DNA of 64,000 bases from NCBI RefSeq assembly GCF_053078305.1, contig NZ_CP166879.1; one strand, given 5' to 3'. This document shows, in pieces, positions 20,701 to 29,700 of the stretch; the stretch's first letter is position 1; the number at the start of each line of letters is the position of its first letter. Position numbers: made by a program.

Positions 20701-23700
20701 TGTACGTCGGAAAGCCTGAGATCGCGCGTTCAGCGTCGATTTTCAGCGCTCACGGCGCTACAGGGAACATCTGGTGCTGAATATCTTCGTTCCCGTGGCA
20801 TATTCAGTCTTCCGGTTGAGGGAGTTCGCTTCAACAGCCAGCAAAATTATAACGGGCGCATGTTCCAGTCTCTTTATGCCCTGGCGACCGATGACAAGGG
20901 AGAACTGTGTTACCTGCATCAGACATTGCTTGATGGAGCTAAAAAAGCAGACATTGGTATCAGCGCCAGAAGGCTCAAATCTTTACAGGACGATAACTAT
21001 CTGGACCATGCCCGGTCAGTTGCTATCAGGATGTTTCCGGTAGCCAGTACACTGGGTATAGCTGAAGGTATCGAAACCGCGTTGTCCGCACATCAGATTT
21101 ACAAAGTAAATACCTGGGCAACCATTAACAGTGGTTTTATGAAAAAGTTCCGCGTACCGGCGGGAGTCACCCATCTGATTATTTTTGCCGATCGCGATGA
21201 ATACAGTGCTACCGGAATGGCTGCGGCCTGTGAATGCGCACATGCAAATCTCCAGGCCCGAAATGACATTCAGCGGGTAAGTGTCCGGTGGCCTGATCAT
21301 GATGATTTCAACAATATGCTCATGAACGGCGATCAGGTTCGGGAACTGGTTTTTTACAGAAAAAAGGCGGTTGCGTGATGCGTACGGACAATCAGGTACA
21401 TAAAGCTTTATTCACTATCCCGGCGGCAGCGTACAGCGCCGTTCCGGCAAATATCAAACCTCTGCCAGAACAAAGGAGGATCACCGGACATAAACAGACT
21501 GATGCTTATCTCTGGATTCTGGAGGTTATTCACCTGAACGAGGCCGTACATCTGGACGCAGCCGAAGCAGCACTGGAGAAACTCAAAATAACGCCGGAAG
21601 AAGCGAGTGAACGGTATGGACGTTATTTGCAGGAGATTAATGTTGATCCTTTCCAGATTGCTTTCGCAACCATAGGCATGGATAACCCGGCGCAGGCGAT
21701 CAGGAATGCCCGTGAGAATATCAAAAAAGCCGCATCAGTCAGGGCCACATTTGGCAGCTATGAGGCAGCACTCGACGATGTGGAGGCTGAGCGGATAATT
21801 CGCACCTCCCCGAAATTTATCGACGATTACTACTGGGGCTGGACTGCGGCAGAGAAAAAAGCCGGAAGTATTGACGGTGTTCGCTCAAATGAAATTGATG
21901 ATCAGCGTCGTGCATATGTTGATGGCTATCGTGATGTACTGCCAGAGCCTCATACATTGTCAGACGTTGTTCGTGAGTTTATTTACTGGGACTGGCTTTA
22001 TGAGATGCGCCAGACAGCGGGGAGAGAAACAGGGGACAAATACGGTTTCACAGGTGAACATCATGAGTCAGTATATGATCGGCAGTTCTGGCTCGAAAAT
22101 TTGCTGGGAAAAATAAAGCCTGTGACGCGTGATGAAGCGGTTGAAGTGTGTCGCTGGTTTCTGGCAAGCGGAAAAGATGAGTACATGGAAGACAATGGTT
22201 CAGCGGTCATTCTCAATCTGGTTGGGGAGTGTGAGCAATGAAGCCGGAGATATCCAGTAGACATTTTCCCCCTGAGCATTCAAATCAGAAAAAGTATGGT
22301 TACAGCGGAGTACAGAATAATGCGTGATATCCAACAGGTTCTGTCCCGATGGGGTGCATGGGTGGTAAATAATCATGAGAGTGTGGCATGGTCCGGCGTC
22401 GCTGCCGGATTTAAGGGAGTGATCCCATCAAAGGTTAAATCACGGCCTCAGTGTACCGATGATGATGCGCTGATTATCAGCAATTGCATGGCGCAACTGA
22501 ACGTCAACAACAGCGATTTGCATGATTTTCTGTATGATTATTATGTGTTCGGGATGACGCTTATGGGACTGGGCCGTAAGCATGAGCGCTCTGATTGCTG
22601 GGCCGGGCGGGTACTGCAAAAAGCTGAAGGTGTTATTGAGGGGATGTTGATTATGCAGGGAATAAAACTGGAAATGGACAGATACGTTGAGCGTGAACGA
22701 TCAGGGGCACAGGTCAGTCAGTTTTCCGGACATACGGGAAATTGAAAGCGCGGGGTTTTACTGTAGAATGACTGCGGGTGCTTGAGGGGGTCTGCCTCGG
22801 GCATGCTGCCGTAAGGCAGACGGAGAAAAGCCCCAGTTAACATTACGTGTCCTGCAAGACGCTTAACATTAATCTGAGGCCCAATCTATGTCACACAACC
22901 GTAGGTTAGCCTCTTACGTGCCGGAAGGCAAGGAGAAGCAGTCTATGAAGCAGCAAAAGGCGATGTTAATTCGCCCTGATCGTCATCTGTTTAACCGTCA
23001 TAGTGACGGCACTGGTAACGAGGAAAGACCTCTGCGAGGTACGGATCCGAACCGGCCAGACGGAGGTCGCTGTCTTCGTAGACTACGAATCTGAGAAGTA
23101 AGAGACCAGGCGGGGGAGTAATCTCCCGCCACCTCTGATGTGTCAGGCATCCTCAACGCACCCGTACTTTATTTGTCATATGCTCCGCAAAATGCAGGTT
23201 GTCGTTGCAACCCGTGCGGTAATTTTTTGTGTGCGAGTGCTCAAAAAACGTTGATTTTCATAAAAGGATAATTTTATGCTGCCAGACCAGCGACCAGCGA
23301 CCAGCGACCAGCGACCAGCGACCAGCGACCAGCGACCAGCGACCAGCGACCAGCGACCAGCGACCAGCGACCAGCGACCAGCGACCAGCGACCAGCGACC
23401 AGCGACCAGCGACCAGCGACCAGCGACCAGCGACCAGCGACCAGCGACCAGCGACCAGCGACCAGCGACCAGCGACCAGCGACCAGCGACCAGCGACCAG
23501 CGACCAGCGACCAGCGACCAGCGACCAGCGACCAGCGACCAGCGACCAGCGACCAGCGACCAGCGACCAGCGACCAGCGACCAGCGACCAGCGACCAGCG
23601 ACCAGCGACCAGCGACCAGCGACCAGCGACCAGCGACCAGCGACCAGCGACCAGCGACCAGCGACCAGCGACCAGCGACCAGCGACCAGCGACCAGCGAC

Positions 23701-26700: not shown

Positions 26701-29700
26701 GCCCATATAGAAGAGCTGGAAGCATACCTGATAGCTGCTGGGCTGAGTGATTACCAACTAACGGAAAAAGATTATCTTATCCTGGAACATTTTAAAAATA
26801 TTGAATTTTCAGGCTTTCCTGTTACTGAGTTATTCTCAGTGTGCAATACAGGAAACATATTGTCTAGAGACATCATAGAAAATAGTGGGGATGTTCCTTA
26901 TCTTTGTGCTAGCCGTGAGAATAACTCTGTTAGTTCTTATATCGCCTATGATAACTCACTCTTGGAAAAAGGGAACTGTATTTTTATTGGTGGTAAGACA
27001 TTCGTTGTAACTTATCAGGAGCGAGACTTTTTTTCAAACGACAGTCATAATTTGCGACTCTATGTTAACAATGAGGATGGAAGGACAAAGTTTGCTTATT
27101 TGGGCATTATTTCATGTATTTATAGATCTATTTCACATAAATATTCATGGGGGGATAGTGTTAGTAATAGAAAAATTAAGAACGATGTTGTTTGGTTGCC
27201 AGTAAAAAATAAGTCACCTGACTTTTGTTATATAAATGACCTTATTTCAGTTGTTCATAAGCTTGTCATTAAAGATGTTGTCCAGTACGCAGAACGCAAA
27301 ATGAACGCATACAGGCAAGCTATAACAAGTCGCGGTTATGATGATTCTGGTGTCAGTTAAAAAACATTTTACAATCGTAAAAATCCTCATATCATGATAA
27401 GAATGGTTACATTGCCACGCTGCTTAACCCGCCGATGCGCGGGTTTTTTGTATCCGGAATCCTGTTAGTTATACGGAAAGTACACAGAAAGGAAGGTGCG
27501 ACCGCAATTAATAACAAAATCTTAAAAATCGCATATGGCACTATTAGTTTTCTAAATATTGTATATTTTGAGTATTGTAGGATATCCCCTGTAACGAAGT
27601 TTGCGTAACAGCATTTTGCTCTACGAGTTTGCCAGCCTCCCCCAGTGGCTGGCTTTTTTTGTATCCGTTCAACAGGAATGTTACATACCTCACAATTAAG
27701 TCAGTTGAAGGTTGTCTGCCCGGATGAGAATTTGTTAGAAAATTTCTGCATGGTGAATCCCCCTGAGCGGCGGGGCATATCAGCGTCACAGGTGTTTCTG
27801 TTTTACCTCTATCCTTTCTGTGCGGGTTCAGGTGCTGATACTGAACTCACCGGGAGGCACCCGGCACCATGCAGTATACAGAGATTAGGCATATACCAGG
27901 GCCCCTCATAGCAGGGGCCTTTTTACATGCAAAAAAAAGCCGCCCCGGGAAGAGCGGTTGGCAAGAAGAAAAGCAATATGAACAATTAATTAACGCTGCG
28001 AATAATACCTTACAGTAATCACCCTGCGCAACTGTGAGGAGTGTATTTCTTTTTTGCGGGTGGTTGTCTTTTTCCCTTGTGTTTCGGGACTTCCGTTCAC
28101 TCCTTATCTTATTCAGTACATTATCCCGGCCGGGAGGATTCATGGCATTTAAACACTATGACGTGGTCAGGGCGGCGTCGCCGTCAGACCTTGCGGAAAA
28201 ACTGACTCAAAAACTGAAGGAAGGGTGGCAGCCTTATGGTAGTGCCCTGATTTCGACAGCTGGTTATGGTGCGGAGTTTATCCAGCCTGTTGTGAGTGAC
28301 AGGGATATCTCATCACCTGCGGAGCCAGGCAGTCACCCGACCGTTTCAACGAAGCCTGCAGCCGAACCAGAATATTACTATGTGATCGCGCTTGCTGGTC
28401 AGTCCAATGGTATGTCATACGGTGAGGGGCTGCCATTACCGGATACATTCGACAGCCCTGATCCACGAATTAAACAGTTAGCGCGCCGCAGTACGGTGAC
28501 ACCGGGAGGTGCTGCTTGTACCTATAACGATATTATCCCGGCAGATCACTGTCTCCATGATGTGGAGGATATGACAGGGCTTAATCATCCCAAAGCGGAT
28601 TTATCGAAAGGTCAGTACGGCTGTGTGGGACAGGGGCTGCATATCGCCAAAAAGCTTCTGCCATTTATACCGGCGAATGCGGGCATTCTTCTTGTTCCGT
28701 GCTGCCGTGGTGGTTCAGCTTTCACCACCGGAACTGATGGCACATACAGTGACACTACTGGCGCCTCAGAGAGTTCCACCCGCTGGGGGGTGGACAAGCC
28801 GCTGTATAAGGACCTCATTGGTCGTACAAAAGCCGCGCTGGCGAAGAATCCGAAAAATGTGCTGCTTGCCGTTGTGTGGATGCAGGGGGAGTTTGATTTC
28901 AGCGGCACGCCAGCGAATCACACGGCTCAGTTTGGCGCACTGGTGGATAAATACCGTGCGGACCTTGCAGATATGGTGGGACAGTGTGTTGGTGGTTCTG
29001 CTGACGGTGTTCCCTGGATTTGTGGAGACACAACATATTTCTGGAAGCAGAAGAACGAAACGGCGTACCAGACGGTGTACGGTAGTTACAAAAACAAAAC
29101 GGAAAAGAATATCCATTTCGTGCCGTTCATGACCGATGAGAACGGGGTGAATGTGCCGACGAACAAACCGGAAGAAGACCCGGATATTCCGGGTATCGGG
29201 TATTACGGTTCAAAATGGCGAACGGACAGAAGCACCTGGACATCTCAGGACAGGGCCAGTCATTTCAGTTCATGGGCTCGCCGTGGGATTATTTCCGACC
29301 GTCTGGCAACGGCGATTCTGAGCTGCGCGGGTAAGTCTTCTGCGTTTGTTAATGGTACTGCCGGGGTGGTTGTTCCAGACAGACCGGTTACCACCTCAGA
29401 GTCTGTAATTTTTTACGATGCCAAAAAAGCTTCAGACAATCAGCTGAAACCTTATGGCTGGGATGGTATGGATGGCAGACGCACACTGGTTGATGACAGC
29501 GGCAATAAAGCTCTGCGAATTGAGAAAAATAACAGCGCGAAATCCTGGTCAATGTACTGTGATATTGCTGCAGACAAGGCAAAACTGTTACTGGAAAAAG
29601 GCGGGGAAATTGCTGTCCGGTTTAAAATCCCCGAAAACGTCAATCTTGAAACAACCAGAAACAAGTATGCCTTTGGTTTGTACTGGCGAATAGCGGAATG

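Follow-up and report, generated by a model that had tools for sequence, protein, structure and literature searches.

The restriction-modification (R-M) systems closest in architecture to the one described here are BcgI and BsaXI, which are (RM)2S assemblies of a combined restriction and modification protein (RM) with a specificity subunit (S) (PMC3592470, PMC11997821), and the single-chain Type IIB/IIG enzymes AloI, TstI and HaeIV, in which R, M and S reside in one polypeptide (PMC4027205). In this study, we report the in silico analysis of an R-M module found in a 64,000-nucleotide (nt) stretch of the Escherichia coli contig NZ_CP166879.1 (GCF_053078305.1), hereafter the window, whose positions are used as coordinates throughout. 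The module shares with BcgI and BsaXI an RM protein in which a PD-(D/E)xK nuclease at the N-terminus is joined to an N6-adenine methyltransferase, an HsdS-like subunit that carries two target recognition domains (TRDs) and a fold match to the BsaXI RM protein. In contrast to those enzymes, S is here apparently not a free subunit but linked to RM through frameshifting, and a heptamer tract would gate expression. With the single-chain enzymes it has in common fold matches to BpuSI and DrdV and the existence of in-frame RM-S relatives of the window protein, whereas in the window the fusion would come only from slipping ribosomes, beside unfused RM. We consider it likely that the prophage carries a Type IIB-like R-M system whose translation is controlled at two levels, by a repeat switch and by a -1 frameshift.

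Prophage R-M cargo and repeat-driven R-M switching are already known; what is new is their combination in E. coli, the length of the tract and the Type IIB-like enzyme. The repeat has a described counterpart in M.Eco131I, a phase-variable Type III mod gene of E. coli strains that produce Shiga toxin (STEC) in which a CAGCGAC[n] tract varies in length within populations (PMC5909438). Its unit is a rotation of GACCAGC, the unit found in the window; in both cases the tract lies in the 5' coding region of a gene of pathogenic E. coli, just after the Shine-Dalgarno sequence and start codon, and its copy number varies between strains. They differ in enzyme class, in tract length (26 units in the reference against 19-120 here) and in that the nuclease and S are also involved here. 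The published STEC mod primer or primers matched neither the window nor the viral contigs searched, and that gene is therefore a different locus. A literature search with every rotation of the heptamer found only this report (Atack 2018, PMC5909438), and the main text of a survey of Type I repeats by the same group mentions neither E. coli nor the GACCAGC unit. In the Type IIG system cj0031 of Campylobacter, repeats also turn an RM fusion ON and OFF (PMC4889913). The cj0031 tract differs from the present one in being a homopolymer, and that system has no separate S.

For the second layer of control, the closest known cases are dnaX (tau/gamma) and OrfAB of the IS3 family of insertion sequences, in which A_AAA_AAG or X_XXA_AAG, with a nearby downstream stem-loop, gives two products in a set ratio. 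The window likewise has a slippery heptamer and then a stem-loop, although it is the shorter product that results from the shift in dnaX. A further parallel is provided by EcoR124I and EcoR124II, in which the copy number of a central repeat in HsdS changes the spacer of the recognition site. An in-frame repeat in the central helix of S also varies here between otherwise identical S genes, its unit being of eight residues (24 base pairs, bp) rather than four. The neuO gene switches by means of heptanucleotide repeats. It is a phage-encoded phase-variable gene of E. coli, carried by prophage CUS-3 (PMC13001214), and differs from the present case in that it encodes a capsule O-acetyltransferase and not an R-M enzyme.

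The open reading frame (ORF) of the RM protein contains at its 5' end a long repeat whose unit does not correspond to a whole number of codons (Table 1). The order is Shine-Dalgarno, ATG, CTG, CCA and array, the latter starting 9 nt after the ATG, and the copies are 100% identical to each other with a guanine plus cytosine (GC) content of 0.715. All three frames are open through the array; past it, only one leads on into the enzyme, and the alternative frames meet stops at 24130 and 24147, within 3-20 nt of the array. The sequences ATGCTGCCA and AAAGGAT directly abut the array even in the alleles of ~85% identity (L007 and L030). The first canonical in-frame start past the array is GTG 24467-24469, at residue 114 of the enzyme body and beyond the PD..ExK motif, and since there is no canonical start before that residue, an internal start in the window allele would remove the motif. 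This GTG is the start chosen by the Prokaryotic Genome Annotation Pipeline (PGAP) in relatives of allele A; if it is used, OFF-phase cells would make a methylase that lacks the nuclease motif. Homologues lacking the repeat begin ~10 residues upstream of the point at which the array ends, and the array is therefore an insertion just after the start codon.

Of 5426 complete E. coli genomes, 29 carried the module, as did a single deposited phage, PhiR12_3. Copy number and frame were surveyed in 22 complete E. coli loci, which are not independent of each other, and ON denotes a copy number that keeps the start before the array in frame with the enzyme body. The arrays had from 19 to 120 copies and all three frames were found, four loci (window included) being ON and 18 OFF. 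Copy number also differed within sets of close relatives with identical flanks: 83 units in G6/7, 99 in G8 and 65+26 in G1/2; 56, 58 and 83 units in three O111:H8 strains; and 19, 22 and 23 units in three OkiPb strains. We rejected an assembly artefact, as 22 complete records contain the array at differing lengths and it is there that short-read contigs break. In 84 other species no such tract was found at the RM 5' end, and only four had short upstream homopolymers.

In this regard, the array has the anatomy of a slipped-strand contingency locus, that is, of a phase switch. Translation from ATG 23276 would have to read through (GACCAGC)n and, since a 7-nt unit is not divisible into codons, units gained or lost by slipped-strand mispairing would shift the frame of the enzyme, so that one length in three would be ON. 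The copy of the window, with 120 units, is ON. Loops of 7 nt should escape the mismatch repair of E. coli, which makes such a tract hypermutable, and switching inside a population would be the predicted outcome. The earlier note, made from the window alone, had called the system switchable without naming a mechanism, and the array now offers one; its interval for the module, 23276-27360, did contain the two ORFs but left unreported the array that fills about a fifth of it.

Some further traits of the array were recorded. It is also open on the reverse strand (window 23176-24195, -; L003 2518-3009, L006 2426-3040 and others), where PGAP places a spurious gene in many RefSeq genomes, annotated as 'YXWGXW repeat-containing protein' or 'hypothetical protein'. 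In addition, the complement of the repeat unit, GCTGGTCG, matches seven of the eight bases of the E. coli Chi sequence GCTGGTGG, 120 times over.

The junction between RM and S is the site of the second putative control (Table 1). The S frame is -1 with respect to that of RM and is open back across the RM stop, and in the window it has no ATG, GTG or TTG before TTG 26251. This codon lies 3' of the conserved N-terminal motif of S, W-E-E-Y-T-I-E-R-L-F, and was rejected as the start of S, since it has no convincing Shine-Dalgarno sequence and its use would cost S an N-terminal segment that is conserved and structured. In a second E. coli allele, in which both the RM C-terminus and the S N-terminus are different, the heptamer is G_GGA_AAG, the stop comes immediately after it and a hairpin of different sequence lies at the same distance; the pattern was found again in two further alleles. 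In four loci (L003, L004, L032 and L037) PGAP splits S into an 'incomplete' pseudogene and a shorter S, while the frame from the slip site is intact over 385-393 codons; the split looks like an annotation artefact due to the missing start codon.

The same arrangement extends well beyond E. coli. In 88 homologous loci from many phyla, S was in the -1 frame in those examined and an X_XXY_YYZ heptamer was present in the RM zero frame in 87, ending at the stop in 82 and one codon before it in five. The heptamers were GGGAAAA (51 loci), GGGAAAG (29), AAAAAAA (4) and AAAAAAG (3). The pattern is kept by codon choice when amino acids change: G is invariably the last base of the codon preceding GGA, as A is of the codon preceding AAA AAA, and no Gly codon other than GGA is used. 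An ATG of S overlapping the RM TGA stop, GGGAAAATGA, was found in only 10 of the 88 loci. In the others S has its first canonical start only 20-461 nt further downstream, and in several loci this start falls well inside TRD1, as in L058, L080 and L082 (281-461 nt). Given that most heptamers of the family have only three or four A's (GGGAAA(A/G)), transcriptional slippage on an A7 run was rejected as the general mechanism.

The hairpin and the S frame were analysed in an ungapped alignment of the junctions of 80 loci (78 distinct sequences). No stop was found in the S frame from the slip site onward in any of the 78, against 63 and 78 sequences with stops in the other two frames, and the entropy by codon position upstream of the conserved Trp agrees with the S frame being coding. 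The family hairpin has 12 bp and begins 5 nt past the heptamer, with 95.9% of the alignment cells paired. Covariation was observed in five pairs that changed on both sides, one of them being UA in 29, CG in 27, UG in 16 and GC in one. None of 500 shuffles reached the observed values, and slid controls did not exceed 48.5%. Thus the overlap of the two ORFs contains a slippery heptamer, a covarying structure 5 nt downstream of it, and a -1 ORF that is coding from the slip site and mostly lacks its own initiator.

Evidence for an RM-S product was sought by comparing the conceptual frameshift product with 1.84 billion representative proteins. Natural in-frame RM-S fusions with 33-55% identity were found, P0122 (983 amino acids, aa), P0143 (1098 aa) and P0183 (1047 aa), the first of them matching at 55% in one stretch that spans the junction. 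In P0137 and P0140, RM is in frame with the linker and TRD1 that the window encodes past the slip site. An AlphaFold2 model of the conceptual fusion, built with 72 sequences, had a mean predicted local distance difference test (pLDDT) score of 90.7 and a predicted template modeling (pTM) score of 0.75. A helix runs through the junction, scores below 50 are limited to residues 675-680 and the residues upstream of TTG 26251 are well ordered. The S-subunit profiles likewise extend into the 27 residues upstream of this TTG when these are included.

The S protein matched Pfam Methylase_S twice and the PADLOC Specificity_II / Type II specificity models, as had been proposed from the sequence, and its predicted structure, TRD-helix-TRD-helix, gave fold matches to 1ydx and 1yf2, so that both TRDs and both conserved helices of an HsdS-like component are present. 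The number of IEELEAAH units in the central helix ranges from one to three: the window has three and L001 two with the same TRDs, and L003 has three and L002 two. Such a 24-bp repeat would, by analogy with EcoR124, probably change the spacing of the half-sites. Another short repeat (…GLADSRTRGLADSRTRGLADS…) follows the IEELEA units in some S alleles (L029 and L006, also L005), and the S frame of L005 ends early, at 266 aa.

The identity of the RM protein was established by several lines of evidence. Its body, the ORF after 24128, matched PADLOC REase_MTase_IIG (PDLC03616) end to end (E 4.8e-234) and Pfam N6_Mtase, with a weak match to VRR_NUC. In a 14-sequence alignment (window plus 13 homologues) the motifs PD..(I)EYK (24302-24370), DFATGSAG (25289-25312) and NPPY (25586-25597) were invariant and in the gamma-class order, which places a PD-(D/E)xK nuclease and an N6-adenine methyltransferase in one polypeptide. 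A Foldseek search with the fusion model matched HsdM, HsdS, the BsaXI RM protein (E 5e-14), BpuSI and DrdV. Sequence searches of the PDB with RM, S and an RM profile gave no match, BsaXI included, and the likeness to BsaXI is therefore at the fold level only; the NCBIfam search gave only weak, sub-threshold HsdM and MAD2 matches. A previous AlphaFold2 model of RM alone, built with 14 close sequences, had a pLDDT of 57 and weak fold matches and was superseded by the fusion model. The earlier note had proposed a fused nuclease and gamma-class methyltransferase and had named domain searches as the check on which this would stand or fall; PADLOC, Pfam, the motifs and the fold matches agree in supporting both folds. 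Its label of BcgI-like (Type IIB) holds at the level of the BcgI/BsaXI architecture. It must be noted that RM is 69-74% identical across Firmicutes, Bacteroidota, Proteobacteria, Spirochaetes and candidate phyla (80 species, L047-L126), which implies frequent and recent horizontal transfer of one R-M family.

On this basis a mechanism can be proposed. A fraction of the ribosomes ending RM would slip -1 on A_AAA_AAG, aided by the hairpin, and continue into S, so that one message would give both RM and an RM-S fusion; one RM together with one RM-S would give the (RM)2S composition of BcgI and BsaXI. As S would depend on the translation of RM, the repeat switch would silence nuclease, methylase and specificity together, and the 24-bp repeat in the central helix of S would probably change the half-site spacing. 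The enzyme is predicted to be active and to have a target site, and the likely benefit would be bet-hedging, in which the defence of the lysogen is set against the cost of the enzyme and the risk of self-restriction. We also incline, by a small measure, towards a broader reading in which a widespread Type IIB-like family makes S only as a -1 frameshift extension of RM, the ribosome sets the RM:RM-S ratio and enterobacterial prophages add a giant heptanucleotide switch. This would be the first programmed recoding in R-M: frameshift coupling in R-M was not found in the literature searched, which included the text of the GeneTack survey and a recoding review (PMC5009743), although it may still have been published.

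Several observations weigh against the two-layer control proposed here. The proportion of ON loci (4/22) is below the one-third expected by chance, a shortfall that is not significant by a rough estimate, and some arrays contain odd units that are possibly long-read errors. An N-terminal extension of 280 residues encoded by the repeat is unusual and might impair the enzyme. Allele B has an in-frame TTG 30 codons past the array, used as the start by PGAP, which makes repeat-independent expression possible in that allele. A scan for sigma-70 promoters between hok and ATG 23276 found none, and only weak candidates were seen by eye, which leaves the lysogen with no evident promoter for the module; the sole good promoter match lies directly after Q, and expression may for this reason depend on late transcription. 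At the junction, GGGAAA(A/G) also encodes the conserved C-terminal Gly-Lys of RM and precedes the overlapping ATG in the 10 loci that have it, so that conservation of the heptamer could partly reflect coding and translational coupling, and the hairpin could serve coupling or mRNA stability.

These last points bear on the alternative that we regard as improbable but as the most serious, a conventional two-subunit BcgI-like system in which S is initiated independently, from TTG 26251 or by reinitiation at a non-canonical codon adjoining the RM stop, with the heptamer and the hairpin acting in coupling and the array still switching RM. BcgI and BsaXI were indeed purified as separate RM and S chains (PMC3592470, PMC11997821), PGAP and other gene callers annotate a separate S, and the overlapping ATG of 10 loci is a classic case of coupling. 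Yet the remaining 78 loci do without that ATG while their S frame is open and conserved from the slip site, in L058, L080 and L082 initiation would fall inside TRD1, and TTG 26251 has the defects already described. The gene callers, moreover, differ on the start of S, and PGAP reports pseudogene pieces despite the intact slip-site frame. The maintenance of X_XXY_YYZ by codon choice and the existence of in-frame fusions also argue for the frameshift. The earlier note had described two separate subunits; this reading, with S from 26251, was not supported, as the -1 frame of S follows the heptamer and hairpin and offers no canonical start ahead of the conserved N-terminus.

We attach little credence to the idea that the array is a neutral or other minisatellite, such as a 5' leader spacer or a near-Chi array, with the enzyme translated at any copy number from an internal TTG (allele B) or from GTG 24467 (allele A), or expressed from the late transcript only. 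The choice of internal starts by PGAP, arrays of up to 120 units that are far longer than typical contingency tracts, the out-of-frame state of most genomes and the 7/8 match of GCTGGTCG to Chi would fit it. Against it, the Shine-Dalgarno sequence, the ATG and two codons abut the array in every allele, those of ~85% identity included, both other frames stop shortly past the array, the internal start of the window allele would cost the nuclease motif, the homologues without repeat begin upstream of the array end, and in the STEC mod gene a rotation of the same unit occupies a like 5' coding position with a tract that varies within populations. Still less credible, and in our opinion very improbable, is that the module is decaying cargo, usually out of frame and with the start of S lost, neither feature being adaptive. 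The 18 OFF loci, an IS1 insertion in the module of one genome (H27) and the frameshifted neighbouring hok of the window point in that direction. However, the RM body and the slip-site S frame are intact in all 22 loci, TRDs are swapped between strains while the conserved parts stay 98-99% identical, and the start-less -1 arrangement is common to the other species examined (87/88 loci). The control of the module by a repeat switch and a -1 frameshift thus remains the reading that we prefer.

With respect to its genomic context, the evidence supports an AT-rich cargo module between Q and the lysis genes of a lambdoid prophage that resembles Stx phages. Its neighbours are the Q antiterminator, a phrog_143 esterase-like protein (in relatives, a SASA family carbohydrate esterase by annotation), holin, endolysin and Rz, which make up a lambdoid late region, and the position between Q/pR' and the lysis cassette is the same in the window and in annotated relatives. 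GC content is 0.33-0.45 over 24200-27400 against ~0.50 in the flanks. The start predicted for the promoter directly after Q coincides with the start of the Rfam sok/hok match (22776), and this element is a putative pR' or hok promoter. Compared with L001, in which Hok is intact (51 aa), the hok ORF of the window is disrupted by one inserted nucleotide. Coordinates of all these features are provided in Table 1.

Table 1. Features of the R-M module and of its flanks in the window.
Feature	Position	Strand	Basis and remarks
Q-family late antiterminator gene	22296-22745	+	phrog_79, E 2.4e-42; relatives annotated 'antiterminator Q family protein'
Sigma-70-like promoter TTGAAA-16-TAGAAT, candidate pR' or hok promoter	22742-22769	+	Promoter scan, 10/12 matches
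hok/sok element; hok ORF frameshifted, ATG 22945	22776-23098	+	Rfam RF01794, 97.6 bits, 22776-22947
Shine-Dalgarno sequence AAGGA of the RM ORF; 7-nt spacer to ATG 23276-23278	23264-23268	+	Sequence
RM ORF	23276-26176	+	ORF list; 966 codons in ON frame
(GACCAGC)x120.6 array, encoding (DQRPATS)n	23285-24128	+	Tandem Repeats Finder (TRF) score 1688, 100% matches
Slippery heptamer A_AAA_AAG, in RM zero frame, one codon 5' of RM stop (TAA 26174-26176)	26164-26170	+	
S coding region, -1 frame, 396 codons from slip site, two TRDs and two long helices	26170-27360	+	
Predicted RNA hairpin; G+C-rich core 26177-26183 pairs with 26200-26206	26172-26211	+	-23 kcal/mol, z -3.1
Second ORF (S, as called from TTG)	26251-27360	+	ORF list
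24-bp repeat, 2.8 copies, IEELEAAH units in S central helix	26657-26723	+	TRF
Intrinsic terminator 3' of S	27426-27451	+	Terminator scan
Hairpin and T-run	27631-27660	+	By eye
STnc100 small RNA (sRNA) gene, between module and esterase-like gene	27719-27930	+	Rfam RF02076, 167.6 bits, full length
Hairpin and T-run, 3' end of STnc100	27900-27924	+	By eye, Rfam

The observations of the earlier note are thus partly confirmed and its interpretation partly supported. The late-region layout of Q, module, esterase-like gene and holin/endolysin/Rz is upheld by phrog matches, the AT-richness by the GC values given above and the hok-like remnant between Q and the module by its Rfam match with the 1-nt insertion. 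Three tandem terminators had been described after the module; one was recovered by the scan and two by eye, the third of them belonging to the STnc100 sRNA. The proposal that the module takes the place of stxAB had to be abandoned. In OkiPb01692 (L005) Q is followed by hok, the array, RM and S, and then by a small ORF, three tRNAs and stxA2B2, and in 2013C-3033 (L033) stx1c comes after S. Given that module and stx coexist in these strains, the module occupies a slot upstream of stx and does not replace it. Neither tRNAs nor stx were present when looked for in the window.

Other prophages and genomes provided additional observations. In a prophage of Providencia alcalifaciens (L042/L043, 3001-6182), a homologue with 73% identity lies in a similar slot, between antiterminator and holin genes; it has no heptamer array, and its junction reads G_GGA_AAA-TAG. 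In a Salmonella enterica contig (L046, 1-3189) the homologue adjoins genes typical of integrative and conjugative elements (RAQPRD, DUF3262 and DUF2976), and the contig starts at the very point at which an array would stop, as if the assembly had broken at a repeat. In a related lambdoid prophage, that of E. coli E2855 (L004 1-715), the annotation places a Mu-like mom gene with its Com regulator immediately upstream of ninG-Q, and this phage would therefore carry a second DNA-modification function. Finally, IS1A is found inside the matched module region in strain 2015C-3121 (H27, NZ_CP027340.1), and in JNEC-KY171 (L001 7652-8110) S has an IS200C transposase gene immediately downstream.

Phase-variable R-M has been well studied in Haemophilus, Neisseria, Helicobacter and Campylobacter and barely in E. 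coli. A switch of this kind carried by a prophage, adjoining stx in some STEC, would make lysogens differ in phage defence, in DNA uptake and possibly in methylation-dependent expression. If S is made by frameshifting, thousands of S genes would have been annotated with wrong starts or falsely called pseudogenes, and structure predictions of such 'S subunits' may miss their true N-termini. If this is true, it would be the ribosome that fixes the subunit stoichiometry of a defence enzyme.

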